Shown here: positions 32,135-46,910 of the stretch, piece by piece
Layout of the letters: each line of letters starts with the position of its first letter
How positions within the stretch are numbered: the first letter of the stretch is position 1
DNA from: Bacteroidota bacterium
GTDB taxonomy: Bacteria > Bacteroidota > Bacteroidia > AKYH767-A > OLB10
Reading direction: 5' to 3'
Length of the DNA stretch: 64,000 nucleotides
Assembly: GCA_016717725.1 (NCBI GenBank)
Contig: JADKFA010000002.1
Location: 78,226 to 142,225 of the forward strand
Position numbers and translations under genes: made by a program
Notes under the pieces: generated by a model
Told to the model about the DNA's origin: nothing
Databases searched by the model: none
The model's input: only the letters and a program-made list of their open reading frames with translations

Positions 32135-33169
32135 ATGAAAGAAGCATTATTAAAGGATATTCAACCGGAAGTAAGAAATTTTCTTGGAAAATATGTAGAC
32201 CTAAAATCTACTAAAACCAAGTTGATGATTACTACTACTGCCTTTAATATTGAGAATATGGAAGACGGCTCAACGCAGTCTATAGTTAATCTTAAAAAGA
32301 TTAATGATATTCGATTTGTAAACAAATTTCAAGAAGCTATTAATGAAAAACTTCCCATGGGTGGTGTTTATGTAGGATTTGTAGAAACCCAGGAGCAAAG
32401 AAGATATCGTTTATTGAAGAAATTTGTACCTGGATTCGCACATTTATATTTTGTTTTTGATTTCATTTTTAAAAGAGTTTTTCCAAAATTGCCATTATTT
32501 AAAAAAGTTTATTTCTTTATTACCAACGGTCGTAATCGTGTGATGTCAAAAGCAGAAGCATTAGGTCGTTTAGCTTCTTGTGGATTTAAAATTATAGAAG
32601 TAAAAGTAATTGGGAATTATACATATTTCGTTGGAAAAAAAGAACGACAACCCCATTTTGATTTATCACCTTCCTATGGTCCGCTGTTTACAATGAACAG
32701 AATTGGAAAGGATGGAAAAATTATTCAAGTATATAAGTTTCGTACCATGTATCCATATGCTGAATATTTGCAGGAGTATATTTACTCTCAAAATAAATTA
32801 GCAGCAGGAGGTAAGTTTGCTGAAGATTTCAGAATTACAAGTTGGGGTAAATTTATGCGTAAAACCTGGTTGGATGAATTGCCAATGGTGATTAATGTCT
32901 TGAAAGGAGATATTAAAATTGTGGGTGTGCGTCCGTTAAGTAAACACTATTATGGGCTTTATACTAAAGAACTACAAGAGAAACGAATTTATTCAAAGCC
33001 AGGTTTGTTGCCACCGTTTTATGTGGATATGCCGAATACTTTGGATGAAATTATCGAGTCTGAATTAAAGTACTTGAGAGCGTATGAAAAAAGACCTTTT
33101 TTAACAGATATTAAGTATTTCTTTTCAATCTGTTCAAATATTATTTTCAGAAAAGCAAGAAGTAATTAA
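32135..33169 (+). CDS. sugar transferase (polyprenyl glycosyl-phosphotransferase, Bac_transf family) with an extra N-terminal domain
   Basis: Bac_transf core in the C-terminal half: YKFRTM...DELPMVINVLKGDIKIVGVRP. Convergent with, and overlapping by 4 nt, the membrane glycosyltransferase-like gene on the opposite strand. Confidence 0.75.
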   Translation: MKEALLKDIQPEVRNFLGKYVDLKSTKTKLMITTTAFNIENMEDGSTQSIVNLKKINDIRFVNKFQEAINEKLPMGGVYVGFVETQEQRRYRLLKKFVPGFAHLYFVFDFIFKRVFPKLPLFKKVYFFITNGRNRVMSKAEALGRLASCGFKIIEVKVIGNYTYFVGKKERQPHFDLSPSYGPLFTMNRIGKDGKIIQVYKFRTMYPYAEYLQEYIYSQNKLAAGGKFAEDFRITSWGKFMRKTWLDELPMVINVLKGDIKIVGVRPLSKHYYGLYTKELQEKRIYSKPGLLPPFYVDMPNTLDEIIESELKYLRAYEKRPFLTDIKYFFSICSNIIFRKARSN

Positions 33170-34665
33170 TTTGACTTTTTAAATATTTGAAATTTTCCAA
33201 TGAGGGTATCTCGCTCGTAATTTTTTATTGGAACTTCAATAAATTCGGTTAATTCCTCTCCTTCGCGCGTAATGATGTATGGAATTTTTCCATCCTCTAA
33301 TAAAATTTGGAATTCTTTAAAGTGAAAAATTCCGATTGGTCTTGTAAAGTATAATGCTACCTCTCTACAAGGAAATAGGGCCTTGTCTGAAAGTTGTAAG
33401 TTCAATGTGTTCTCTTTGTGAAAATCAGTAAGAATCCATTCCCCATCTTTAATCTTTGATTTAAGATAGTTGGAAACATCTATGCAATTCAGGTAATTTT
33501 TCTTCGCTTTTTTCATCATGCCGAGATCTCCCCAGCCTTTGTCGTTGGCAGCCGATATGATGAAGAATGGCGAAAGCATTAATGCAAACAGTACAACCTG
33601 ACTGGTTGGGCCGATTTGATTCTTTAAAAGTAGAGCAGCACCATAGATTGATAGTGCAATAAATTCTAAATAGTAGTTAGAGCCAGACCCCGCTTTGAAT
33701 GCTGTAATGGTGGCTGTAGTAAAAAACCATGCAATTCCAATTGATAAAAATATGTATCCTGGCCTACTGCGTTCTTTGAATAAAAGAAGTGCAATAAAGA
33801 ATCCGGATGCTAAAATGTAGGAAAATTTCAGGAAGAAGTTTTTAAGAATAACTTCTGTAAACCAATTAGGATTGAACCCGTTTTTAACACCATCTAACAC
33901 GTTTAATTTGAAGTAGGGTAACGAATCGGGATATATAAAAATTAAGGAAATAAGTAACGTAGCCATTGCCCCTCCCATGAAGACCGTCCATTGGTACATG
34001 GATCGTTGTAAAAAAATATAATAGATACAGCAAAACCCAAATAAAAAGACAGCTGTTTGTTTTGTTAATAGAGCCAACATGCAAAGTACACCACTGAGCA
34101 GTACAAGTCGAATATTGATGATATGTGGTGCTCTGTTGCTAAATATATTTTTTAAGAGTACAGCAAGAGTAGCTACAAAAAAGAAAAGGTATAAATTGTC
34201 GACTCTTGCATAAATGATGCTGGGTATAGAAAGAAAATATATGCAGGATAATGCAATCGCTAGATTCTTTTTTACCTGTAATGTCTTTACTAAAGTTCTT
34301 CCGATTACAAAAACAGTTGATGCGTCGAGGATTAGGCAGAAAACTCTGTTGACTACCATCATGGAATGCACATCTTTTGTGACACCAAGTAGTTTTCCAA
34401 TAAAAGTTACCACATAAAAATGTAATGGCATATATTGTATGATAGGAAAAGGTGCTGCCTCCGGGTTTGTGTAGAGTTCACTCCCAGATAATATACGCAT
34501 GATTCCATACATGACATTAATTGAAACACCACCAATCTCCGGTAAATAAGAAAATGCAAGATTAATTCGTAAAATAAATAAACATATCGTCATCATTAGA
34601 ATGATGAAGAGGAGTATGGCTCCGGGCGATATCTTTAATCGAGTAATATTCATTTTTTTTGCCAT
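33166..34665 (-). CDS. polytopic membrane protein, probable GT-C-fold glycosyltransferase (ArnT/PMT-like) with C-terminal soluble domain
   Basis: 499 aa. About 12-13 TM helices and a roughly 100-aa C-terminal globular tail. Assigned by topology and gene context rather than a strict motif. Confidence 0.45.
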   Translation of the reverse strand: MAKKMNITRLKISPGAILLFIILMMTICLFILRINLAFSYLPEIGGVSINVMYGIMRILSGSELYTNPEAAPFPIIQYMPLHFYVVTFIGKLLGVTKDVHSMMVVNRVFCLILDASTVFVIGRTLVKTLQVKKNLAIALSCIYFLSIPSIIYARVDNLYLFFFVATLAVLLKNIFSNRAPHIINIRLVLLSGVLCMLALLTKQTAVFLFGFCCIYYIFLQRSMYQWTVFMGGAMATLLISLIFIYPDSLPYFKLNVLDGVKNGFNPNWFTEVILKNFFLKFSYILASGFFIALLLFKERSRPGYIFLSIGIAWFFTTATITAFKAGSGSNYYLEFIALSIYGAALLLKNQIGPTSQVVLFALMLSPFFIISAANDKGWGDLGMMKKAKKNYLNCIDVSNYLKSKIKDGEWILTDFHKENTLNLQLSDKALFPCREVALYFTRPIGIFHFKEFQILLEDGKIPYIITREGEELTEFIEVPIKNYERDTLIGKFQIFKKSN

Positions 34666-35360
34666 ACCCCAATTAATGACTTCCCGGTAGAATAACCGAT
34701 AATCGGATCAATTATTTTTGAAACAGGAACGATGAGTCGATCCCAGAATTTTACATCCTTTAATGTGGGATACTCTTTTTTGAGAAACCATTTGTTGGTG
34801 AGCGATGCGAAAAAACCTAGACAATCTAAGTAAAATATTTTTCTCTTCTGTAAACTGGCAGGAATGACTTTTTGAAGTCTTGCTTTATTATACCTTCTAT
34901 AATGGCCGATGGCTTTGTCGAATGGACTAAACAAATATTGATGAGCCGGAACCAATATAATCAAGTGCCCCCCAGGTTTTAAAAGGGTTGAAGCCCGATC
35001 AATTTCAAGAATATCGTTTTCTATATGTTCGATTACGTCAATATAAATAATGGTATCAAATAATTTTGTTGGGGAAAGAGAATCGGTCGTGCCAACCTGA
35101 AGTTGACTATTATTCGGAAGAATCTTTTCCTTCATCTTATTCTCAATTTTGCTGGCGAGAGACGCATCTGGTTCTAGACATAACCATGATGATACGGTTT
35201 CATTATGCAAATGCAATGTTGTCTCGCCGATCCCTGCACCAACCTCAAGTACTTCACCCTTAATAAAAGGTGACAAATGTTTTTTGTAATATCCCTTCCA
35301 ATTATGAGCATGACTGAATAGCTCCAATTCATTACCAATATAATGAGATGCTTCACTCAT
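34650..35360 (-). CDS. class I SAM-dependent methyltransferase
   Basis: Motif I VLEVGAGIG. Overlaps both neighbouring genes. Confidence 0.7.
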   Translation of the reverse strand: MSEASHYIGNELELFSHAHNWKGYYKKHLSPFIKGEVLEVGAGIGETTLHLHNETVSSWLCLEPDASLASKIENKMKEKILPNNSQLQVGTTDSLSPTKLFDTIIYIDVIEHIENDILEIDRASTLLKPGGHLIILVPAHQYLFSPFDKAIGHYRRYNKARLQKVIPASLQKRKIFYLDCLGFFASLTNKWFLKKEYPTLKDVKFWDRLIVPVSKIIDPIIGYSTGKSLIGVWQKK

Positions 35361-35364
35361 AACC

Positions 35365-36276
35365 TTAAGCGATAAAGTTTTTGTATTCCAATGCCGGGAT
35401 AAAATGACGTTGCGTCCGATAGTTTAATACATTGAACAAAAGTAAAAGTGAAATGAGAAATGCTTGAAATATTAAAATTAAAAAACTTAACACCACAAAG
35501 GAAGCCCATCCGGGAATAGCTAAGGGAGTAAAGAATCTAATTCCTGTGACAACAAAAATTCCTATTAATGAGATTGTGATTAATCCAAATGTCGATATTA
35601 ATATTCTAACGGCAAGCACATCTGTATACACCGCAATAGCACTTAACCCATGAATCACTAAAGCAAAGAAGTTCATCTTTGATTTGCCATGGTAACGTGT
35701 ACCCCGGTCAATATCGATGGAAGTGTATGCAAGACGCGATCTAATAATTCCCCCGGAAAAATGATTCCAAATGTCAGATACAAAAACAAGATTGTTAACT
35801 TTTTTAAATGGAATAGCACAAAAGTTTCCGAAATTAATTTTCTTTCCAGTTAATAGTCGGTAAATCTGTTTGTATAGAACATAGAAAAAGCGGAACCAAA
35901 ATCCTTCGTATCTTTTTTTTCTGGTGCCAAATATTATTTTATCTTTTTCTAAAACTGCTTTGTTGAGTAAAGCTGAAATGTCTGATGCTTTATCTTCACC
36001 ATCACCGTCCATCACAATCACATAATCCGAAGATGCATTATCGTTGATGTAACAAAGTCCAATTGCTATAGCACGTTGATGCCCTATGTTTCGGTTAAGT
36101 GTAATAACGTTAACGTTTGGTGGAAAATCCAAACGTTCATCTGTAGAACAATCATCAATAATATAATAACGGATTGAAACATTTTTCTGGAAGCTAATTT
36201 CTTTTTCGATATCAGTAATTAATTGAGCACACGACTCCCAATCATTAAATACCGGAATTAGAAGATTAACTTTCAT
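35365..36276 (-). CDS. GT2-family polyprenol-phosphate glycosyltransferase (ArnC/GtrB/DPM1-like) with two C-terminal TM helices
   Basis: IIDDCSTD and VIVMDGDGED (DxD) in the N-terminal half. Two TM helices at the C-terminus. This is the GtrB/ArnC architecture. Confidence 0.8.
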   Translation of the reverse strand: MKVNLLIPVFNDWESCAQLITDIEKEISFQKNVSIRYYIIDDCSTDERLDFPPNVNVITLNRNIGHQRAIAIGLCYINDNASSDYVIVMDGDGEDKASDISALLNKAVLEKDKIIFGTRKKRYEGFWFRFFYVLYKQIYRLLTGKKINFGNFCAIPFKKVNNLVFVSDIWNHFSGGIIRSRLAYTSIDIDRGTRYHGKSKMNFFALVIHGLSAIAVYTDVLAVRILISTFGLITISLIGIFVVTGIRFFTPLAIPGWASFVVLSFLILIFQAFLISLLLLFNVLNYRTQRHFIPALEYKNFIA

Positions 36277-36320
36277 AAAGAGAGGTTAGTTCAAATCAAT
36301 ATTGTTAAACGTAATTTTTT

Positions 36321-36815
36321 TCATTTTTGTTCGGAGTTTTTGAGGCCAAAGGCTTTTACAAAGGCAATAATGGCTAAAAAAAGCAAAGGTGACAGAAATA
36401 AGTCCTCCAAATAATGGGAAAGCCCTGTACTTAATCTGTAATCCACTCCAAAATCTCCTAGTTTGAGTAGGAGAAAGCTAACTAACATATATCCGAGATA
36501 GAGCAGAACAATTGCTTTTAAAATAAAAAGAGATTTAGAATATAAATAAAGTATCGTTGCTCCGATAACCATAAATAGAAAACTATACAAAACAGCTGAT
36601 TGCAATTTCGAAGGGATTTTTATTCCAAATGTCCCTTTCATGGCTGTTTTTTCAAATTTAGCAACGTCTTTTTTTGGATATCTATTAATGAAAGTGGGAA
36701 CTCCTTTTTCAATAATAAGGAGTTTTTTTTCTCTTTTAAATCCAATATTGAGTAATAAGATGGCGAATAAAGCGATCAGTAACCAACGAAGTGGCGATGG
36801 AATATTATTTACCAT
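36321..36815 (-). CDS. exosortase F system-associated small membrane protein (candidate)
   Basis: 164 aa, about 4 TM. Overlaps the stop of the XrtF gene by 11 nt. XrtF is typically paired with such a protein. Confidence 0.5.
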   Translation of the reverse strand: MVNNIPSPLRWLLIALFAILLLNIGFKREKKLLIIEKGVPTFINRYPKKDVAKFEKTAMKGTFGIKIPSKLQSAVLYSFLFMVIGATILYLYSKSLFILKAIVLLYLGYMLVSFLLLKLGDFGVDYRLSTGLSHYLEDLFLSPLLFLAIIAFVKAFGLKNSEQK

Positions 36816-37377
36816 TTTCGTTACTTTTAGAAGACTGTGTCAATTCCTGAAGTTTACTATATCGATTCGTCCAAAATATCCATAAAATAAAAATTATAGA
36901 ATAAACCAACGTAGTAAAGGTATAATGATGATTAAAATCGAGGTATTCTGGAGCTTTAAATTGGATGAGCGATAATGCTACTGTTCTAAGTACATTAAAA
37001 AAATGAATGATAATACTTCCGATAATTATAAACCACCATTTATTTTTCCAGGTCCCAGGGAAACAAACTATAAAACCCGCAAAGAGTATAAATAACTCTA
37101 ATCCGTTACAGGGATTACCTACGCCAACAACGGCGTTATTTTGAATACATACAAGTGTTTGAGCATTTCCGGGTTGAGTACTACCGTCGTATCCAAGAAT
37201 ATCTAAAATATACCCTGCATCAGTGGCAACTTTGTAATTCAAATATTGATCTACCTTTTGGTTGGGAGCTATAAAATAGTCATATGAAATAAACCAAATG
37301 ATATATAATAGAACAGCTTTAATTACAAAGAGTACCATTGCTTTTTGCTTTGGATCCTTGTTGAGGAATTTTAACAT
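36805..37377 (-). CDS. xrtF: exosortase family protein XrtF
   Basis: 190 aa. Multi-TM. The cysteine motif GNPCNGLE resembles the exosortase catalytic Cys region, and NVLRTVAL resembles the conserved Asn/Arg motif. Its size matches the short XrtF class of Bacteroidota. Called by motif and size from memory, not by search. Confidence 0.65.
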   Translation of the reverse strand: MLKFLNKDPKQKAMVLFVIKAVLLYIIWFISYDYFIAPNQKVDQYLNYKVATDAGYILDILGYDGSTQPGNAQTLVCIQNNAVVGVGNPCNGLELFILFAGFIVCFPGTWKNKWWFIIIGSIIIHFFNVLRTVALSLIQFKAPEYLDFNHHYTFTTLVYSIIFILWIFWTNRYSKLQELTQSSKSNENGK

Positions 37378-37464
37378 GAGGCTAAATTAGTAAGGAAGGG
37401 CAGAATTCAAAATAAAAAAGGTCAGCAAATATTGCTGACCTTAAAATCTATCAAGTAATTGGAT

Positions 37465-37644
37465 TTAATCTTCCTTTTTCTTGTTATAAATTTTCTTGAT
37501 GCCATAACCTGCACCTGCAGCTAAAAGAAGGCTTAATCCACCATCAATTGGCACATTTGGGTTACTCTTTTGTGCCAGAAGCGGTAAAGCAAACATTACA
37601 ATTACCACAAGTAGAGGTAACGCTTTTATGAATGTTTTTTTCAT
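37465..37644 (-). CDS. 59-aa pre-peptide: signal peptide plus C-terminal PID-type sorting signal (P-I-D-G-G, TM helix, Lys-rich tail). Putative XrtF substrate
   Basis: MKKTFIKALPLLVVIVMFALPLLA | QKSNPNV | PIDGGLSLLLAAGAGYGI | KKIYNKKKED. The probable start is the second ATG, at 37644. Lies immediately upstream of xrtF on the same strand. Confidence 0.5.
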   Translation of the reverse strand: MKKTFIKALPLLVVIVMFALPLLAQKSNPNVPIDGGLSLLLAAGAGYGIKKIYNKKKED

Positions 37645-37743
37645 TTTAATTATTTTTTTTCTGGAGTTAATTAACAATTATGAGTTTTTAGAATGATTGT
37701 TTGAGGATAAGAAAGAGGGGCATTAAGCCCCTTTCTTAACTAT

Positions 37744-40700
37744 TTATTCAACAATCATTTTAATTTGTTCAACTACATTGTTAGTTTCAATCACTACGAA
37801 GTAGATGCCAGCAGACATTTGGCTAACGTTTACTTCTCTTTGATTCAAACCATTAGTAGCTGTTCCACGCTCTGTCATGATAGTACGTCCAGAAACATCA
37901 ACCATTTTAATGTTAAAGTCTGCACCTTCAGTACTATTGAAGACAATAGTTGCACGATCAGCAGCAGGTTTGGATATACATTCAAACCAGTTACCTCACC
38001 TTGATCACCAAAACGAGGACCGCAATGTGCAACGCTGATGGAGATACCATTCAATACACGGTTTGCGCTTGTTCCGCAACCATTAGACGCATTTACAGAT
38101 AAGTTCAATCCGCTAGCTGGGTTAGTTCCCCAAGTTGCAAGGATATCTTTTGTTCCTTGACCACTTGTAATAGTTGTACCACCAGGTAAAGACCATAAGT
38201 AAGTAGAAGCACCAGTTACTGTAGAAACACCGTAAGCTACACCAGATTGTCCTGGGCAGATAGTGATGTCACCAGTGATAACTCCAGGAAGACCAGGAGC
38301 ACCAGATACGTTCAAGTTGCGAGCAGAACCTACACCACAAGCATTTGTAGCACTTACAGATACATTTCCACCAGCATAAGCACCGTCAAAGTCAACAACA
38401 ATTGATTGTGTTCCTTGACCAGAAGTGATGGTTGCACCAACTGGAACAGACCAGTTATAACCAGTAGCAGAAAATACAGCAGCTGCTGTGTAAGCAACTC
38501 CTGTTGATCCACAAACACCAGTAGAAGGACCAGAAATAGATGCAGATACAGAAGGAACGTTAATAGAAACGCTACGATCACGATTTGGACTTATACCGCA
38601 AGCATTAGCAGCTCTACATGAAACTGTACCACCTACATAACCACCTGATACATCAACGGTAATTACGTTTGTTCCAGCACCAGAAAGAATGCTCATACCA
38701 GCAGGTAGAGTCCATACATAGTTTGAAGCACGAGCTACAGGAGCTACAGAGTAAACTCCATTGTCACCTGGACAAAGTTTTGTTGTACCAGAGATAGAAG
38801 AAGGTCTAACAGGGATAATTGCGCCAATATCAACTCCAAGTGAGCTAGGAGTACCATTACCACAAGCATTAGAAGGAGTAACCACTAAGTTTCCGATGAT
38901 TCCATCATGAACTGCCTGAGGAGCCCATGAAACGAAGATGGAATTAGTACCTTGACCGGAAACGATGATCATTCCGTTTGGTACGGTCCAAGAATATCCG
39001 GAAGCATCAAATACTGGGCTAATAGAGAATGTAGCAGAACCTGTTACAACAGCCATACATTGTACTGCAGGACCTGAGATTGGACCTGCAACAAGAAGGT
39101 TTTCATCAATTAGACCATTACAATCATCATCAATTAAGTTACAAATTTCTGTGGCAGCTGGGTTAACAGCAGCATTGTTATCATCACAATCTGTTGAGTT
39201 ACCAACATAACCTACTGGCGCACCATTACAAGTACTTACTGAACTAGAAGCATCACCATAAGAGTCACCATCAACATCAGCATAATAAGTAATGAAAGTT
39301 AAACCGTCATCAACTAATAAATTACAATCATCATCTACACCGTTACAAACTTCAGTTGCACCAGGATAAACAGTATTATCATTATCGTTACAGTCACCAC
39401 CACAAGATGTGTAACCGTCATTATCAACGTCAAAACCTTCGTCAGTTAATCCATCACAATCATCATCAATTGAGTTACAAATTTCAGTAGCAGCAGGATT
39501 AATTGAAGGATTAGTATCATCACAATCAGTTGCATCAGCAGAATATCCAACTGGAGCAGCAGCTTCACAACTTAAAATACTTGATCCAGCGTTACCATAA
39601 GTATCGCCATCAACATCAGCATAATATGTGTAAGTTGGAGTTACAACTTCAACTGTTTGGTTTGAGCTATAACAAATATCTAAACCACCTAAAGTGTAAG
39701 TAATAGTGTGGAAACCAGCAGCAGCAAGAGCAGGATCAAAAGAATTACCAGAAACACCAGTTCCTGAGAATGTTCCACCAGCAACAGCAGGAGTTAAAGT
39801 AACCAAACCAGCATTTTCACAAACAGTAGCACCAATTCCACCGAAAGAAGCATCAGCAGGACCAAAATCATCGATTCTTAAACCGAAACCTGAGTTAGTT
39901 GTGGTGCCGTATCCGTCAACTTGGATGTAATAAGTTTGACCAGGAGTTAAGCAATGTGCTCTTGCATAAGAATTATAAGGAGAACCTGAAGAGTCATCAT
40001 TTGCAGCAACTAATACCGCCGCTCCAGTTAAAAGATCACCACATGCTGAAGCAGACCAAACCGCTACTTGACTATCCCAGTTACCTGGAGAGAATCCTAC
40101 TCCATAACGACCAGAACCACCCATTGGAACCGTGAAAGAGAACCAAACCGTTTGATTAGCTGCAACACACCAACTACTATTTCCTGTACATCCAGTTGCA
40201 GGAGGTTGTGATTCTCCTACTTCAAGAGTAGCACCTACGTTAGAATAAGGACCATTAACGCCAATATTTACGGGCACAGCATCACAAACATTATCACCTT
40301 GAAGAGTAACAACAGTAGTCACAATATTTGAACTGTCATCAGTACAACCTGAAACAGAAGATACCAAACGTACTTCATAGGTTCCTGGACCTCCAAAGAA
40401 AATATTTTGAGGATCATTTGTACCACCTGGTACAATTAACCAAGTTGTACTTGGTTGAAGACGGCCTATCCACTGTAAAGTTCCTGTAGAAGTTCCGCTA
40501 CTGTATGAAGCAGCCTGACTAGCATAAGCAGACGCAGGTCCACTGATTGTTCCTGCAGCAGGTGGTGGAACAGCTTCAACAAATACAGAAGATGAAGGTA
40601 CCGTAGAAGCTCCACAAGTTACGTTGCAACGGTAGTAATATGAAATTGCTACGTTGTTTTCAGTCCACGCAGCTGTTGTTGCACCAACGATGTCATAATA

Positions 40701-42269
40701 ATCAACATCGTCATTAGAATATTGCCATTGGTAAGTTTGACCAGTTCCACCAGATGTACCAGTAAGAGAAAGGTTAAGGTTAACAGTAGTAGTATTACAG
40801 AATTGAGTAATGTTTGATTGAGCAGATCCAGCCGTAGGAGGATCAATACAAACTGGCTCAGGTTGCAAGTCTACAAGATAATCTTCTGTTTCACCATAAG
40901 AATAAGTTCCGCAAGCTGTAATAGCTGATGATTCTTTAATTATTACACGCATTCCTGTTAAACCAGAAGGACCTCCAGTAGGAATTGTAAAATTAAATAG
41001 AGGAACAGAGTTTAATGCTGTTGTAGTATTATAAGAAGCTACTCTTTCAGCAGGATCTTCATAAGTTCCACTTTGGTTTATATCAATAAATACAGCAACA
41101 TAAGCACCATAATGGCTACCTGAACAAGAACCGTTGCGTACGCGCATACTTTGCGGTGTATTGAAATAAATTACAGGCGCAGGAACGGCTGTATTATTAG
41201 TATATGTTTCACATGCAGTTGCTGCAGTTCCAACATATAAAGTACCTAATTCAACAGAATCAATTTTTGTATCTGCAGAATTAGTTGCATTTGAAGCACA
41301 ATAGCAATTTAGGAATGAATTTACACCAACAAGAACAGAATTAGATGTTCCTGGGTTTGGATCGTATAAACATGAAACGATACAATGGAAATACTTAGGT
41401 GTAGCACCCATGGTGAATGCAGCAGAAGAAGAATTCGTTCCGAAAGGTGTCCAGTTTATATCGTCATCAGAATGTTCCCAAACGTAAGATACGTCAGAGC
41501 CTGATGTAACATTTTGTAGACTTAAACCAACAGAAGTTCCACTACATGCATTTGCAGTACTAGCAACTGTATTTCCCGGAGCAGGTTGTCCAGCACAGGG
41601 TGATGCGCTAATAATATCTAATTGAATATTAGGACGAAGTGCGGAAGATGTACTTGATCCTGAATAACTTCCCGGAAGTGCAGCAGGATCAGGATTATAA
41701 GTATCACTGTACAATTGTCTTACTGTTGTGGTAGGAGAAGTGGTAGTGTAGCGCCAGCCTGCAGAGCAGGTATACGAAGCTGCATTCTCATCAATTGCAA
41801 CTATCAGATTTCCGCCGGAGTAGTTAAAAGGAGTGGAAAGCGTAATTTCCATCCAGTTTCCTACAGCAGGGAAAGTGACAATACCAGAGAAACACTGGGT
41901 CATTGCAGATGTCGGTGTATAGTTAGCAGCTCCTGTTGTTAAAGCGGTAAGTGCAGTGTTGCCAAGATAAACCGTCCAGTTGTCGGACGTAGTTGTGGGG
42001 GAGAAAGAAGTTGCATAATAAAATCTGATCTTACTAATTGTTCCCGAACCACTGTAACCTCCGGCAACGATCTCCGCTGATGTATATAACATCTGAGTAT
42101 AAGAATACCCATAGCAGGAACGAATCGGGAAGGACGTTGTTGTTGTCGTACCAGCTCCGATTTGAACTGTTGTTTGTGCCTGTAAGTTGCCGGAAGCTAA
42201 TCCAAGAAGGATCATGAAGCTGACCAGCCAACGAGACATGCTTTTCATTGTGTAACTGTTGTTTTTCAT
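37744..42269 (-). CDS. giant (about 1500 aa) T9SS-secreted protein with Ig-like/PKD-like domains, MopE-type Cys/Asp-rich putative metal-binding repeats, and a type-A C-terminal sorting domain that is out of frame (frameshift at about 37985)
   Basis: Probable start MKNNSYTMKSMSRWLVSFMILLGLASG (42269). Repeats CDDTNPSINPAATEICNSIDDDCDG... and CNDNDNTVYPGATEVCNGVDDDCN... occur twice. The C-terminal sorting domain NVYPNPAADRATIVF...GIYFVVIETNNVVEQIKMIVE* is read only after a +1 shift near CCAAACCTGC. Confidence 0.7.
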
Positions 42270-42767
42270 TTTGTTTATATTTATTGTTAGATTTTTTAAT
42301 TCAGCTCTATAGGTAAAAAGATTTATGAATGCATGTAAATGCATTTTACATAAAGTATTTTCTTCAGTAACATGTAAATTTGTTTTGTTATAACTAGTTC
42401 TAGATTTTGCTGGAATTTCCGGATACACAGCAAAAACAAATATATGACTTCTTATGACAATTGCAAGCATTTTTTTGATTATGTTAATTTCGTTTTGCAA
42501 GTAAGTATTCCCATTTTTTTACAATTGCTTGGTTTTCACAGATTCGAATTTACATTTGATTCCATTTATTTTATCAACTGTTTGGTGAATAGTTAAAAAG
42601 AATAGGTGAAAATGTGTAAGGTTCTTGGATCTTTATTAAAAAAGTGAAGTTTTTTCTTGACTTGTATAGGTTTAATGTAATATCTTGCATGGTTAAGTTA
42701 CTTGCTTTCCAATCTTTCAAGTGCCAATTTTACACTCCCATCATTCAATTATTATCTAAATCAGCTT

Positions 42768-45700
42768 ATGAAAGCAAAGCTATTATCAGTAAATTATGTA
42801 TTATCAATTCTAAGTTTTTTGATGTTTTTTTTCAATGGATTTTCATTTGTCAATGCTCAAGAAAATAGAGTGTATTGGCAAACGATTCCTAAGTCTAGTT
42901 TAATTAATTTAAATAGCAGGTATGCACTCCCAGAAAAGTTTGTCACTTTGCAATGTAATACAAACTTAATTCGACAACAATTAAGTGTTGCTCCTATGGA
43001 GTTTACTTCGGGTGCGTTAAACTCAACTGTTACTTTTAAGATACACATGCCTGATGGTAATATTCTTTCTTTTAAGATGGTAGAATCGATGGTGATGGAT
43101 CCTGTATTAGCAACCCAATTTCCATCCATAAAAACGTATTCAGGACAAGGCATCGAAGAAAGAGATGCTATTTTAAAAGTAAGCATAAGCCCAATTGGAT
43201 TTCATGCTATGATTTTGTCTCCTAAAGGAAATGTTTTTATTGATCCATTGGAGCCCGGGAATACTAATGATTATATAGTATATTTTAGAAATGATTTTAA
43301 AGAATATCGTTCGTTTAATTGTGAGTTGGATAGTTTGCCAATTAATAAAAGTAGATCTTATCAGCAAATTGCAACCGGTCAAGCAAATAAAACACATGGT
43401 ACCCAATTAAGAAATTATCGTTTAGCACTTGCTTGTACAGGTGAATATGCGGCCTATTATGGAGGTACTACATCGGGTGCTATGGCCGGTATGGTTGCTA
43501 CAATGAATCGTGTAAACGGAATTTATGAATCAGAAGTGTCAGTTCGAATGACAATGGTTGCAAACAATAATTTATTGATCTATACAAATGCAAGCACAGA
43601 TCCATTTACGAATACAAATGGTTCTACTATGCTTGGACAAAATATTACGAATTGTAATACCGTCATTGGAAGTGCAAATTATGATATTGGTCATGTTTTT
43701 AGTACCGGTGGAGGTGGAGTTGCTTATTTAGGTGTTCCATGTACTTCGAATAAGGCAGGTGGCGTAACAGGTTCTGGAAGCCCCGTAGGTGATGCTTTTG
43801 ATGTGGATTATGTGGCACACGAAATGGGACATCAATTTGGAGGGAGCCATACTTTTAATGCGACAACAAGTTCTTGTGGTGGAGGTAATAGAAGTGCTTC
43901 AGCAGCTTATGAACCCGGAAGCGGAATTACTATTATGGCATATGCTGGAATTTGTGGTGCTACCAATAATTTGGCCCCAAATAGTATTGCGTATTTTCAT
44001 ACGCATAGCTTCGATCAAATTACTAATTATATCACAACTGGAAGTGGAAATACATGTCCAACAACAACCGCTACAGGGAATACGCCTCCAACTGTTACTC
44101 CAGATGGTTTAAATTATTATATACCTTATTTAACTCCGTTTTCGTTAAATGCAACAGGTTCGGATCCTAACGGTGATGCATTGACGTATTCATGGGAAGA
44201 ATATGATTTGGGTGCAGCTGGGAATTGGAATGCACCCGTAGGCGATGCTCCCATTTTCCGTCCATTTCCTCCCACAAGTACTGGAACTCGTATTTTTCCA
44301 AAAATTTCGGATATCGTAAATAATGCTACAACGATTGGAGAAATTCTACCTAGCTACGCACGCGTATTAAAGTTTAAAGTAACCGCTCGTGATAATAGAG
44401 TAAATGGTGGAGGTGTGAATAGAATTGATGCAAATGTTTTAGTAAATGTCATCAATACAGGTGCTGCGTTCACAGTTACTGCACCTAATACTGCAGTTAC
44501 TTGGGCTACGGGTGCAACGGCAAATGTGACGTGGAATGTATCATCAACAAATATTGCTCCCATCTCCTGTGCTAATGTGAATATTTTATTGTCTACAGAT
44601 GGAGGATATACTTATCCGATAACTCTGCTATCAAATACACCAAATGACGGAAGTGAAAATATTACTGTTCCTGGAAATGTTACTTCTACCGCACGTGTGA
44701 AAGTGGAAGGTGCCGGAAATATCTTTTTTGATATTTCAAATGTAAATTTTAATATTATTGCAGGCGGTGGTGTTTTAACAACAATTTCTACCGATCCTAT
44801 TAGTCCTTTAAATTTATGCCCTGGACAAGCTCTCACCGTTGGATTTGCGGGCAATGGAAATGCAAACGCAGGGAATGTTTATACAGCGCAATTATCTTCG
44901 TCCATAGGTTCGTTTGCAAGTCCAACTAATATTGGAACATTAAGTAGTACCTCCTCTAGTGGAAGTATTTCTTGCATAATTCCAGGAGGAAGTATTGCAG
45001 GTACTGCTTATCGAATTCGAGTTGTTTCTTCTCTCCCCTCTGTGGTGGGTTTGGATAATGGAGCTAATTTAATAATGATTGGAACCCTAGGAGCAACCGG
45101 AACAATTTCTGGTCCGTCTAGCGTTTGTCAAGGACAGAACGGTGTGGTTTATTCAACAACGGCGGTTTCAAATGCATCCAGTTATGCTTGGTCTTTGCCT
45201 ATTGGATTTACCATCACATCAGGATCAGGAACGAATAGTATAACAGTAAGCATAGCCGCAAATGCATCTTCTGGTTCAATTTCAGTAACTCCTTCGAATA
45301 TTTGTACTACGGGTTCTACTTCTAATGCCTATTCCGTTTCCGTTTCTCCACTTCCTTCTACAGCAGGAGTACTATCTGGCATTACCAGTGTATGTCAAGG
45401 TGATCAAAATATCATTTATTCTGTTCCTTCCATATTATTTGCTACAAGTTATTCGTGGAGTTTACCTGTTGGGTTTTCTATCGTTGGAACTCCTACAAAT
45501 AGCATCACGGTTAATGTTGCTCCTGGAGCAGCTTCTGGAACGATATCAGTTTACGGGGTTAATTCATGCGGAAATGGTGGTCCTTCATCTCTAGCTATTG
45601 CGGTGAACTCTGCTCCAAGCGCTGCTATTCTATCAGCGGGTGGACCTCTTACAGTTTGTTCTCCTAATACGGTTTCAATGTCATTCTCTCCTTCTGTTGG

Positions 45701-46910
45701 GGTAGATTATCAGTGGAGATTAAATGGAATTGATTTGTCTGGCGAAACAGCTTCTTCCTATGTTGCCACACAAACTGGTAATTATGATGTGGTGTCGAAT
45801 TTCGCCGCAGTTGGAAGCCAACAATTTTCTACTGCAGTTCCTGCTGTAATACCAGATAATAGTTGTACAGGTGTAGCAAGTCCTATTATTGTAAGCGGAT
45901 ACACGTCATCGATTCCTACATCAAGCATATATGTTCAATTGAATTTAACGCATACTTATGTTGGAGATTTGGATATATTTCTCGAAAGTTCATCAGGAGA
46001 AAGATTAGGACTTAGCGATCAAACTGGGAATGCCGGTAATGGTGGTGTTAATTTTATAAATACAGTTTTTGCAGATTCGGGAGCTACAATTCTGCCTACA
46101 ACGGGTGCTCCTTATTCAGACTTATATAAACCATGGAACGCCATTTTTACAGTGAATTCATGTGCATTAACAACTACGCATACAAGCTTTGCTTCATTGG
46201 GGGGAGGTAGTTTAAATCCGAATGGAACTTGGCATTTGAAAGTGTACGATAGAGCAGGCGTCGATACAGGGAGAGTAGTGAATTGGTCTATTTATTTTCC
46301 TGGAGTGAGTGGCTCGTGTTCGTCTGTTTCAAATGTGCTTTCGGTGGATGTTATTTCACCTATTACGTTTACTTCCTTTAATCCAAGTAGTGGAAATGTT
46401 GGAAATGCGATTTCTTTAGTAGGAACTCAAATGAATACTTTAACAAGTGTTTTATTTAATGGTGTAAACGCAGCATTTGTAGTAGTTAGTAATACTGAAT
46501 TATCAGCTACTGTTCCTGCTGGAGCAACTTCAGGTGTTATCACATTGGTAGGGCCTTGTAATTCGATGAATTCAAGTAGTTCGTTTACTGTAAATACAGG
46601 AAGCTCAAATTTAAATTTATATGTAGCAATAGAAGGATTTTATATCGGTGGTGGAAACATGATTGGAGTCATATCGTCATCAGTAAGCGATACCGTAACT
46701 GTTCAACTTAGAAATACATCATCGCCATATAGCGTTGCGTATACTACAACTGTTACTTTGAACGTGAATGGTCAAGCCTCTATCATTATTCCTGCTCCTT
46801 ATAGTGGAAATTCGTATTATATTGCTGTAAAGCATCGTAACTCCCTCGAAACATGGAGTAAGTTTCCTGTGTTGATGTCGCCCGTTGTAAATTTCACGTT
46901 TAAGAATTAA
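42768..46910 (+). CDS. secreted zinc metalloprotease (metzincin, reprolysin/M12B-like, HExxHxxGxxH) with proprotein-convertase P-domain and multiple Ig-like/IPT domains
   Basis: Probable start MKAKLLSVNYVL... (signal peptide). Zinc motif HEMGHQFGGSH at about 43818-43852. P-domain-like region GDLDIFLESSSGERLGL...GTWHLKVYDRAGVDTGRVVNWSIYF at about 45900-46300. Confidence 0.7.
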   Translation: MKAKLLSVNYVLSILSFLMFFFNGFSFVNAQENRVYWQTIPKSSLINLNSRYALPEKFVTLQCNTNLIRQQLSVAPMEFTSGALNSTVTFKIHMPDGNILSFKMVESMVMDPVLATQFPSIKTYSGQGIEERDAILKVSISPIGFHAMILSPKGNVFIDPLEPGNTNDYIVYFRNDFKEYRSFNCELDSLPINKSRSYQQIATGQANKTHGTQLRNYRLALACTGEYAAYYGGTTSGAMAGMVATMNRVNGIYESEVSVRMTMVANNNLLIYTNASTDPFTNTNGSTMLGQNITNCNTVIGSANYDIGHVFSTGGGGVAYLGVPCTSNKAGGVTGSGSPVGDAFDVDYVAHEMGHQFGGSHTFNATTSSCGGGNRSASAAYEPGSGITIMAYAGICGATNNLAPNSIAYFHTHSFDQITNYITTGSGNTCPTTTATGNTPPTVTPDGLNYYIPYLTPFSLNATGSDPNGDALTYSWEEYDLGAAGNWNAPVGDAPIFRPFPPTSTGTRIFPKISDIVNNATTIGEILPSYARVLKFKVTARDNRVNGGGVNRIDANVLVNVINTGAAFTVTAPNTAVTWATGATANVTWNVSSTNIAPISCANVNILLSTDGGYTYPITLLSNTPNDGSENITVPGNVTSTARVKVEGAGNIFFDISNVNFNIIAGGGVLTTISTDPISPLNLCPGQALTVGFAGNGNANAGNVYTAQLSSSIGSFASPTNIGTLSSTSSSGSISCIIPGGSIAGTAYRIRVVSSLPSVVGLDNGANLIMIGTLGATGTISGPSSVCQGQNGVVYSTTAVSNASSYAWSLPIGFTITSGSGTNSITVSIAANASSGSISVTPSNICTTGSTSNAYSVSVSPLPSTAGVLSGITSVCQGDQNIIYSVPSILFATSYSWSLPVGFSIVGTPTNSITVNVAPGAASGTISVYGVNSCGNGGPSSLAIAVNSAPSAAILSAGGPLTVCSPNTVSMSFSPSVGVDYQWRLNGIDLSGETASSYVATQTGNYDVVSNFAAVGSQQFSTAVPAVIPDNSCTGVASPIIVSGYTSSIPTSSIYVQLNLTHTYVGDLDIFLESSSGERLGLSDQTGNAGNGGVNFINTVFADSGATILPTTGAPYSDLYKPWNAIFTVNSCALTTTHTSFASLGGGSLNPNGTWHLKVYDRAGVDTGRVVNWSIYFPGVSGSCSSVSNVLSVDVISPITFTSFNPSSGNVGNAISLVGTQMNTLTSVLFNGVNAAFVVVSNTELSATVPAGATSGVITLVGPCNSMNSSSSFTVNTGSSNLNLYVAIEGFYIGGGNMIGVISSSVSDTVTVQLRNTSSPYSVAYTTTVTLNVNGQASIIIPAPYSGNSYYIAVKHRNSLETWSKFPVLMSPVVNFTFKN

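Follow-up and report, generated by a model that had tools for sequence, protein, structure and literature searches.

We analysed a stretch of 64,000 nucleotides (nt) from the metagenome-assembled genome of a Bacteroidota bacterium (GenBank assembly GCA_016717725.1, contig JADKFA010000002.1, positions 78,226 to 142,225 of the forward strand), hereafter the window, in which the gene of a minimal exosortase, XrtX, and those of its partners are followed by a three-gene cassette encoding a GT2 glycosyltransferase, an S-adenosylmethionine (SAM)-dependent methyltransferase and a GT-C glycosyltransferase. An initial annotation, made from the sequence alone, had read these genes as an exosortase F (XrtF) operon hard-wired to a polyprenol-phosphate glycosylation module. 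The six minus-strand open reading frames (ORFs) and the convergent plus-strand ORF that it had placed there were confirmed by ORF listing at the same coordinates. We conclude that the pairing of XrtX with the cassette is an optional, lineage-specific add-on and not a built-in part of the system. The features of the locus are listed below with their positions in the window.

37465-37644, minus strand: PID-CTERM mini-precursor gene, 59 amino acids (aa), as in all homologues, with the ATG at 37644 as its most likely start; the mechanical ORF spans 37465-37677 (TTG at 37677, 70 aa)
37408-37442, minus strand: hairpin resembling a terminator or attenuator, with an 11-bp stem, a 3-nt loop and a T-run, located after the peptide gene and before xrtX
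36805-37377, minus strand: exosortase X (XrtX), a minimal exosortase of 190 aa (NF046081)
36321-36815, minus strand: putative XrtX-associated polytopic membrane protein, 164 aa (full-length match to NF046082 below its cutoff, position, BLAST clustering)
35365-36276, minus strand: cassette gene 1, GT2 polyprenyl-phosphate glycosyltransferase of the GtrB/ArnC type, 303 aa (PF00535, GtrB and ArnC relatives)
34650-35360, minus strand: cassette gene 2, cytoplasmic class I SAM-dependent methyltransferase, 236 aa (Pfam methyltransferase domains)
33166-34665, minus strand: cassette gene 3, GT-C fold glycosyltransferase, 499 aa (structure prediction)
32135-33169, plus strand: convergent Bac_transf polyprenyl-phosphate sugar-phosphate transferase, 344 aa, a separate transcription unit (PF02397, 98 bits)
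37744-42500, minus strand: upstream cargo gene for type IX secretion (T9SS), on the same strand as the module, with GEVED, MopE, PKD_6 and Por_Secre_tail domains, frameshifted in the window

From the peptide gene to the GT-C gene, successive genes are spaced by +87, -11, +44, +4 and -16 nt, and the stop codons of the GT-C and Bac_transf genes overlap by 4 nt. The convergent polyisoprenyl-phosphate sugar phosphotransferase of the initial annotation was thereby recovered, together with its 4-nt overlap. For comparison, we searched one genome per GTDB species, obtained 80 loci encoding sortase relatives (among the loci designated L001 onwards) and clustered the ORFs surrounding them. The universal core across these loci consisted of the PID-CTERM mini-protein, XrtX and the associated membrane protein (60-69 of the 80 loci).

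The 190-aa protein scored 196.4 bits against the exosortase X model NF046081 (cutoff 170), 103.4 bits against the XrtF model TIGR04128 (cutoff 90) and 62.2 bits against XrtY. The XrtX model thus exceeded the XrtF model by 93 bits, although the XrtF cutoff was also passed, and the identification as XrtF had picked the sister family. All 10 relatives sampled across the identity range scored best as XrtX, and public annotations of the homologues read XrtF in older records and exosortase X in newer ones. A total of 14 exosortase/archaeosortase models matched the protein, and residues C90, R131 and H150 were invariant in 39 homologues; conserved Cys, Arg and His residues are a trait of the exosortase family. 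An AlphaFold model (predicted local distance difference test score, pLDDT, of 90.7) used in a fold search returned generic helical bundles only, with no solved structural relative and no CPBP match, and neither Pfam nor NCBIfam reported a CPBP family for the protein. The initial annotation had considered that the protein might fail the XrtF models and score as a CPBP/CAAX protease; it passed the XrtF cutoff, scored best as XrtX and matched no CPBP family.

The adjacent 164-aa protein, whose start overlaps xrtX by 11 nt and which has several transmembrane (TM) segments by hydropathy, had NF046082 as its sole family match (42.3 bits for a cutoff of 75, with an alignment covering positions 2-145 of the 147 in the model). 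Hymenobacter members reach 148 bits with this model and other lineages 19-61, so that it evidently suits Hymenobacter best. In BLAST clustering, the protein groups with the gene found downstream of XrtX in 69 of the 80 loci, and this clustering and its position support its placement as a putative member of the XrtX-associated membrane protein family. It had no GtrA Pfam match, and the associated gene was found at XrtX loci with or without the cassette. The role of exosortase-associated membrane protein proposed for it by the initial annotation therefore stands on position and BLAST clustering, with the family being that of XrtX (below the NF046082 cutoff) instead of XrtF.

The proposed PID-motif sorting-signal peptide was borne out by the PID_CTERM model NF046080 (51.5 bits, cutoff 26), which matched residues 42-66 of the 70-aa ORF, at its extreme C-terminus. 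The mini-precursor comprises a Sec signal peptide ending in ...LLAQ (read from the sequence as MKKTFIKALPLLVVIVMFALPLLA), an 8-residue core (QKSNPNVP, whose region lies at 37540-37570 on the minus strand) and a PID-CTERM signal made of PIDGG, a TM helix (LSLLLAAGAGYGI) and a basic tail (KKIYNKKKED). Its homologues are 59 aa long and belong to Pfam PF28310 (PID_CTERM). Directly upstream of XrtX, at least 60 of the 80 loci have a mini-ORF (about 60-75 aa) that encodes a signal peptide, then a short linker, P[IV]DGG, a TM helix and a basic tail. Mature cores vary by lineage and include QKSNPNVP, Q[NS]CNPNVP, Gly/Pro-rich linkers and a two-Cys motif (CWPPPC or C(I)PPPC) immediately preceding P[IV]DGG; that of the window is unusually short, with 8 residues against the 15-30 Gly/Pro-rich or CWPPPC-containing residues found elsewhere. 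The signal peptide ends in "AQ" in most homologues, which is consistent with the Bacteroidetes Q-rule (PMC5837995), whereby signal peptidase cleaves before a Gln that then cyclises to pyroglutamate (PMC5837995, PMC10653852).

In the window and 94 related loci (about 1.5 Mb), the PID-CTERM profile matched only the mini-proteins adjacent to XrtX. The domain-only profile was too short for a large protein search and we used a full-length profile instead, of which the best 120 database matches were mini-proteins only (59-112 aa); long PID-CTERM proteins could occur among lower-scoring matches. Within the sampled sequence, XrtX looks like a single-substrate system.

The 303-aa protein carries a GT2 domain (PF00535), its best solved relatives in a PDB sequence search over residues 3-276 are GtrB (5EKP, 3e-12) and ArnC (9HWJ, 3.9e-9), and a D90-G-D92 motif was read from its sequence and its C-terminal tail is hydrophobic (residues 203-286), in agreement with the polyprenol-phosphate glycosyltransferase of GtrB/ArnC type first described. 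Its weak NCBIfam matches were full-length and all to polyprenyl-phosphate glycosyltransferases, led by PgfS (53 bits for a cutoff of 500, followed by ArnC with 36 for 529, PpgS with 34 for 370 and AglJ with 24 for 325); as all of these lie far below the cutoffs, the sugar is not assignable from equivalog identity. The 236-aa protein carries the Methyltransf_23, _12, _25 and _11 domains, in line with the SAM methyltransferase already proposed, and had no TM segment and no specific relative in NCBIfam or PDB.

The 499-aa protein, identical to locus tag IPO63_01925, had no Pfam match (E<=0.01) and no NCBIfam match, and its family profile found nothing in PDB. Structure prediction gave a GT-C fold, to which a small periplasmic alpha/beta domain is added at the C-terminus (about residues 403-499). 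Its homologues P0093, P0122 and P0109 carry PF02366, PF13231 or PF09594, and the distant relative L094 passes PMT_2 with 26.9 bits. The fold supports the ArnT/PMT-like label at the level of the GT-C superfamily (ArnT/PMT/STT3-like), while the window protein itself matched none of the named GT-C families (GT39 PMT, GT83 ArnT, PMT_2, GT87) in Pfam, and the pair of GT2 and GT-C enzymes does correspond to the classic two-step machinery using a polyprenyl-phosphate-linked sugar. Candidates, from conservation, for the acidic catalytic residue of the first periplasmic loop and for the phosphate-binding basic residues of GT-C enzymes are E43 (nearly invariant) and E69 in loop 1, and R154, D156, K202 and Q203 (invariant). 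This is a very small family: 5.8 billion proteins yielded 44 clusters. No small flippase gene of the GtrA/GtcA/ArnEF type was found at the cassette locus (32135-37677), where the sole small polytopic protein is the XrtX-associated one. Two loci (L008:7421-11890 and L010:12725-17221) encode three tandem GT-C paralogues after the GT2 and methyltransferase genes, with only 40-45% mutual identity, an old expansion in one sub-clade that suggests several acceptors or linkages.

The cassette followed the core in 10 of the 80 loci (L001-L008, L010 and L013), all from one uncultured Bacteroidia lineage in which XrtX is at least 57% identical to that of the window, and was absent from more than 85% of XrtX loci. 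The genes downstream of the core in other XrtX lineages are housekeeping ones, such as glyA, an ABC transporter with metK, mutS or dnaK. In a bootstrapped neighbour-joining tree built from XrtX, the associated protein and Bac_transf, cassette-bearing clade A joined the cassette-less loci L009 and L011 at 100%, and the monophyly of cassette bearers received 0% support. The tree demands at least two gain or loss events with the XrtX core kept; once further metagenomic loci were included, parsimony favoured a single gain (node support 80) and two losses, one in L009/L011 and one in L095/L096. Since the core was kept where the cassette was lost, the cassette is dispensable and XrtX functions without it. 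Between the associated gene and Bac_transf, the spacers of L009, L011 and L015 held no cassette remnants, with matches limited to the 3' end of Bac_transf. The description of the exosortase as hard-wired to glycosylation is therefore not supported. Adjacency of XrtX or XrtF to GT2 and GT-C genes, whose recurrence across Bacteroidota the initial annotation had named as a check, was found in 10 of 80 loci, in a single lineage and with one inferred gain and two losses.

GT-C relatives with 23-30% identity (L092-L094) have a GT2 gene immediately upstream, with no methyltransferase and no XrtX nearby, and their neighbours are unrelated genes, e.g. queA, DUF349, GHMP kinase and DUF58. The occurrence of such distant pairs among unrelated genes indicates that GT2 and GT-C form an autonomous module, of which a methyltransferase-containing version joined the XrtX operon at its 3' end in the present lineage. 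Two cassette-bearing public records, L002 (CALQEU020000011.1) and L007 (CAZHSC010000044.1), bear the names Bifidobacterium breve and uncultured Bifidobacterium sp. in their titles, which are evidently wrong, as both hold a Bacteroidota-type XrtX locus (72-82% identity).

At 37442-37418, in the gap that separates the peptide gene from xrtX, a terminator scan detected a GC-rich 11-bp hairpin with a T-run after it. Its position is kept in relatives including Hymenobacter, with stem sequences that differ between lineages. Of the 40 loci whose gap is 35 nt or longer, 21 had a hairpin satisfying a strict criterion, while the control set of co-directional gaps had one in 14 of 165. We found one at the same position in L001, L005, L006, L008, L009, L011, L012, L014-L017, L026, L031, L038, L049, L053, L073 and L080. 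The hairpin looks like the precursor gene's own terminator or attenuator with read-through into the enzyme genes, and suggests a highly expressed precursor followed by attenuated read-through. An Rfam search found no family match for the hairpin or elsewhere in the window. Scanning for sigma-70-like promoters was uninformative (20 sites for 28 expected from shuffles), the Bacteroidota TAnnTTTG motif occurred inside genes only, and the junction between the associated gene and the GT2 gene showed no conserved motif among the loci compared. PADLOC assigned no defence system, its single match being a generic methyltransferase domain.

The Bac_transf gene is a neighbour of the XrtX module, whether or not the cassette is present, in at least 19 GTDB loci. 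In the cassette-less L009, L011, L012, L014-L018, L032 and L095/L096, the associated gene abuts it directly, and the stop-codon overlap uses the same AATTAATTACT motif whether it involves the GT-C gene, as in the window, or, as is often the case in cassette-less loci, the associated gene. One rearranged locus (L021:31-2672) has xrtX inverted and divergent from the peptide gene, with the peptide gene, the associated gene and the convergent Bac_transf gene still adjacent, an arrangement which hints that Bac_transf is tied to the XrtX module in that clade.

The peptide core was then compared with the presence of the cassette. In an initial set of loci, cassette-bearing ones had the core QKS[ND]PNVP, whereas cassette-less ones had QNCNPNVP, QSCNPNVP or QHSNPCIP, in which a Cys is kept. 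The strict rule equating a Ser-containing, Cys-less core with the cassette was dropped after P0234 (core QNCNPNVP) was found to have one; P0222 (core QKCDPNIP) had none, as the rule predicted. The loci L098-L100 combine the cassette with a Cys-containing NCN core. In clade B, the cassette-less L095/L096 have KCD where their cassette-bearing sisters have KSD.

In 27 of 73 loci, the gene directly upstream of the XrtX module, usually on the same strand as it, encodes a T9SS C-terminal sorting domain, compared with 33 of the 813 other genes of the same loci (counts not phylogenetically corrected), and a Pfam search of 36 same-strand upstream genes returned 27 Por_Secre_tail and 2 CHU_C domains. 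This enrichment is notable because xrtF mutants of Flavobacterium johnsoniae share the phenotype class of porU and porZ mutants (PMC10936215), and XrtX and XrtF may be functionally linked to type IX secretion. In the window, the cargo gene, which has a hairpin of its own at 37732-37716 (terminator scan), carries a 1-nt deletion at about 37969/37968 relative to the intact orthologues of L001 and L004 (CCAAA-CCTGC for CCAAATCCTGC), which places Por_Secre_tail out of frame in the ORF 37744-37905. The orthologue at L001:4108-8583 is intact and encodes 1491 aa, and for the deletion in the window, either the assembly is in error or the gene is a true pseudogene. A large protein with a Reprolysin-type metalloprotease domain and PKD_6 is encoded divergently upstream of the XrtX module in L008, L010, L012, L013, L032, L095 and L101; the 1402-aa ORF at 42702-46910 on the plus strand was assumed to be its counterpart in the window.

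We interpret the locus, with roughly even confidence, as two separable modules in which the cassette decorates an envelope acceptor that XrtX does not need, for example lipopolysaccharide (LPS), another glycan or other proteins. A standard exosortase X system makes up module 1. Its 59-aa pre-peptide would be exported by Sec, cut after ...LLA as expected from the Q-rule so that an N-terminal Gln is exposed, and retained in the inner membrane by the PID-CTERM helix. By analogy with other sortase-like systems, XrtX (through its Cys, Arg and His residues) and the associated membrane protein would process the precursor near PIDGG and transfer the core of about 8 residues to a nucleophile, and the hairpin after the peptide gene matches the expectation for a precursor made in abundance, with partial read-through beyond it. 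Module 2 would be a three-component-type cassette inserted between the XrtX core and the conserved convergent Bac_transf gene and riding on transcription of the XrtX operon. On the cytoplasmic side, the GT2 enzyme would charge polyprenyl phosphate with a monosaccharide, the methyltransferase would probably methylate that sugar or its precursor in the cytoplasm, a flippase encoded outside the cassette would carry the product across the membrane and the GT-C enzyme would transfer the sugar to its acceptor at the periplasmic face.

Several observations weigh against this separation of the modules and speak for a dedicated coupling in this lineage, in which the cassette acts on the XrtX peptide or on its acceptor, an alternative that we consider possible but less likely than not. 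All GT-C homologues with at least 33% identity and a visible context (about 24 loci) lie in the XrtX/Bac_transf arrangement, contigs starting inside the cassette continue with the same synteny downstream (Bac_transf, lysE, 328-aa gene), and the position of the cassette is unchanged while GT-C diverged to 41% identity. The lysE gene, the 328-aa gene and dnaK are themselves syntenic throughout the lineage, so that conserved adjacency cannot separate function from inheritance. The cassette is on the same strand as the XrtX genes with short or overlapping junctions, the gap between the associated gene and the GT2 gene being 44 nt in the window and -53 to +54 nt in relatives (mechanical ORF calls), and from xrtX to the end of the GT-C gene the scan found no terminator-like site, including at this junction, although terminators were detectable elsewhere in the locus. 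Co-transcription of the cassette with the XrtX genes is plausible on these grounds, and the single transcription unit of the initial annotation may hold for this part; the strong hairpin after the peptide gene means that the full unit needs read-through at that point. The Cys-to-Ser change in the core arose twice independently, each time in a cassette-bearing clade, and no cassette-less lineage shows it; together with the KCD/KSD difference of clade B it gives a weak hint, from sequence comparison, of possible functional coupling. Exosortases are also classically tied to glycan loci (PMC1569441), and PgfS, the best NCBIfam match of GT2, is the donor synthase of streptococcal protein O-glycosylation (PMC11092751), albeit at about a tenth of the cutoff. 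In such a coupling, GT-C could O-glycosylate the peptide core (on Ser3 of QKSNPNVP), or it could build or alter the glycolipid or glycan nucleophile that receives the peptide from XrtX, with a ribosomally encoded, exosortase-ligated glyco(lipo)peptide as the product. It sits poorly with the scarcity of the cassette among XrtX loci and its two losses with the core retained, with the NCN core of L098-L100, with the lack of a flippase in the cassette and with the three divergent GT-C paralogues of L008 and L010, which fit poorly with one Ser in an 8-residue peptide. The more specific proposal that XrtX and the cassette make one product, the precursor being trimmed to a pyroglutamyl octapeptide that is then either O-glycosylated with a methylated sugar by GT-C or ligated by XrtX to a polyprenol-derived glycoconjugate from GT2, GT-C and Bac_transf, giving such a glyco(lipo)peptide on the Bacteroidota envelope, appears to us possible, if rather doubtful.

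The cassette might instead partner Bac_transf, with XrtX merely adjacent: the transferase would start an undecaprenyl-diphosphate glycan to which GT2 and GT-C add a (methylated) periplasmic side branch, as in Gtr-type O-antigen modification. The 4-nt stop-codon overlap and the constant location of the cassette between the XrtX module and Bac_transf point this way, three-component systems typically decorate glycans begun by such transferases (PMC11127046), and the GT-C paralogues of L008 and L010 would fit glycan diversification. We nevertheless judge this unlikely, as Bac_transf is equally conserved where the cassette was never present or was lost, lies on the opposite strand, has no flippase, polymerase or further glycosyltransferase genes nearby and stays beside the XrtX-associated gene in the rearranged L021, which points to XrtX and not to the cassette. 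A misassignment, with the 190-aa protein being a CPBP/CAAX protease or another non-exosortase or the 499-aa protein a transporter, could draw on the missing Pfam and NCBIfam matches of the latter and on the missing solved relative of the XrtX model. It is highly improbable given the 14 matching exosortase/archaeosortase models, the XrtX score above a curated cutoff, the invariant Cys, Arg and His and the absence of any reported CPBP family; the CPBP and transporter identities were ruled out by the family searches and the fold assignment.

What can be drawn from the locus is limited: the linkage is optional and restricted to an uncultured lineage, and thus offers no general clue to exosortase function. 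Should the cassette act on the XrtX peptide or its acceptor, a polyprenol-linked sugar pathway would be part of exosortase chemistry in this lineage, and the coupling would make a prediction on the 8-residue peptide that is testable by mass spectrometry. We know of no exosortase with an experimentally defined acceptor, and the one-product proposal, if true, would offer exosortases their first concrete candidate acceptor or modification. The design of the XrtX core, with its mini-precursor, terminator and T9SS neighbour, is the better lead, and this core also occurs in culturable Hymenobacter.

Among known systems, the closest is the XrtX/PID-CTERM system catalogued in NCBIfam (NF046080, NF046081 and NF046082; Pfam PF28310), which has the same three-gene core in the same order, an architecture that we also found in loci from Hymenobacter, Salibacteraceae, Crocinitomicaceae and Flavobacteriales. 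The window differs from the catalogued systems by its divergent associated protein, its shorter peptide core and the appended cassette. A literature search found no publication on XrtX or PID-CTERM. The XrtF system of F. johnsoniae (Fjoh_1448, xrtF; Fjoh_1449, exosortase F system-associated protein) is a sister arrangement of a small Bacteroidota exosortase with an adjacent membrane partner. Deletion of either gene abolishes biofilm formation and surface colonisation, the phenotype class of porU and porZ mutants (PMC10936215), and the targets of XrtF are still unknown (PMC10936215, PMC12188702). Deletion phenotypes are known only for F. johnsoniae, and no glycosylation cassette has been reported there.

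The PEP-CTERM/XrtA systems share with the window an exosortase, a tripartite C-terminal signal and neighbouring glycan genes including PF02397 transferases; the location of EpsH (XrtA) genes near glycan genes, PF02397 among them, was the founding observation of exosortases (PMC1569441). In XrtA systems, the substrates are numerous, Ser/Thr-rich and often large, and the exopolysaccharide (EPS) loci are large, with PrsK/R/T regulators, whereas the sole substrate detected in the searched sequence of the window and its relatives is a 59-aa mini-protein, accompanied by a GT2/GT-C pair and no EPS assembly pathway. As a sugar-derived exosortase acceptor was speculated on earlier (PMC7468200), the idea of a glycoconjugate as acceptor is not new (PMC1569441, PMC7468200). 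The cassette itself follows the two-step logic of a GtrB/ArnC-type GT2 and a GT-C enzyme shared by GtrA/GtrB/GtrC, CsbB/GtcA/YfhO, ArnC/ArnE-F/ArnT and PgfS/PgfM (PMC11127046, PMC7389260, PMC11092751), three-component systems being a general route for extracytoplasmic glycan decoration (PMC11127046, PMC7389260). Unlike these, it has no GtrA-type flippase gene in or beside it, a SAM methyltransferase gene lies between the two transferase genes, and the GT-C protein is too divergent for any Pfam GT-C model.

Archaeosortase A/PGF-CTERM and rhombosortase/GlyGly-CTERM resemble the window in having a signal made of a motif, a TM helix and a basic tail that a dedicated membrane enzyme removes. The archaeosortase ArtA attaches a lipid-type moiety on signal removal. 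For rhombosortase, the attached moiety contains glycerophosphoethanolamine (PMC7468200). Both process large surface proteins, whereas the putative substrate in the window is a mini-protein. Set against these systems, the undescribed pathway proposed by the initial annotation reduces to a smaller novelty, since the core was already catalogued and a sugar-derived acceptor already speculated on; what is new here is the GT2-methyltransferase-GT-C cassette appended to the XrtX operon in one lineage.

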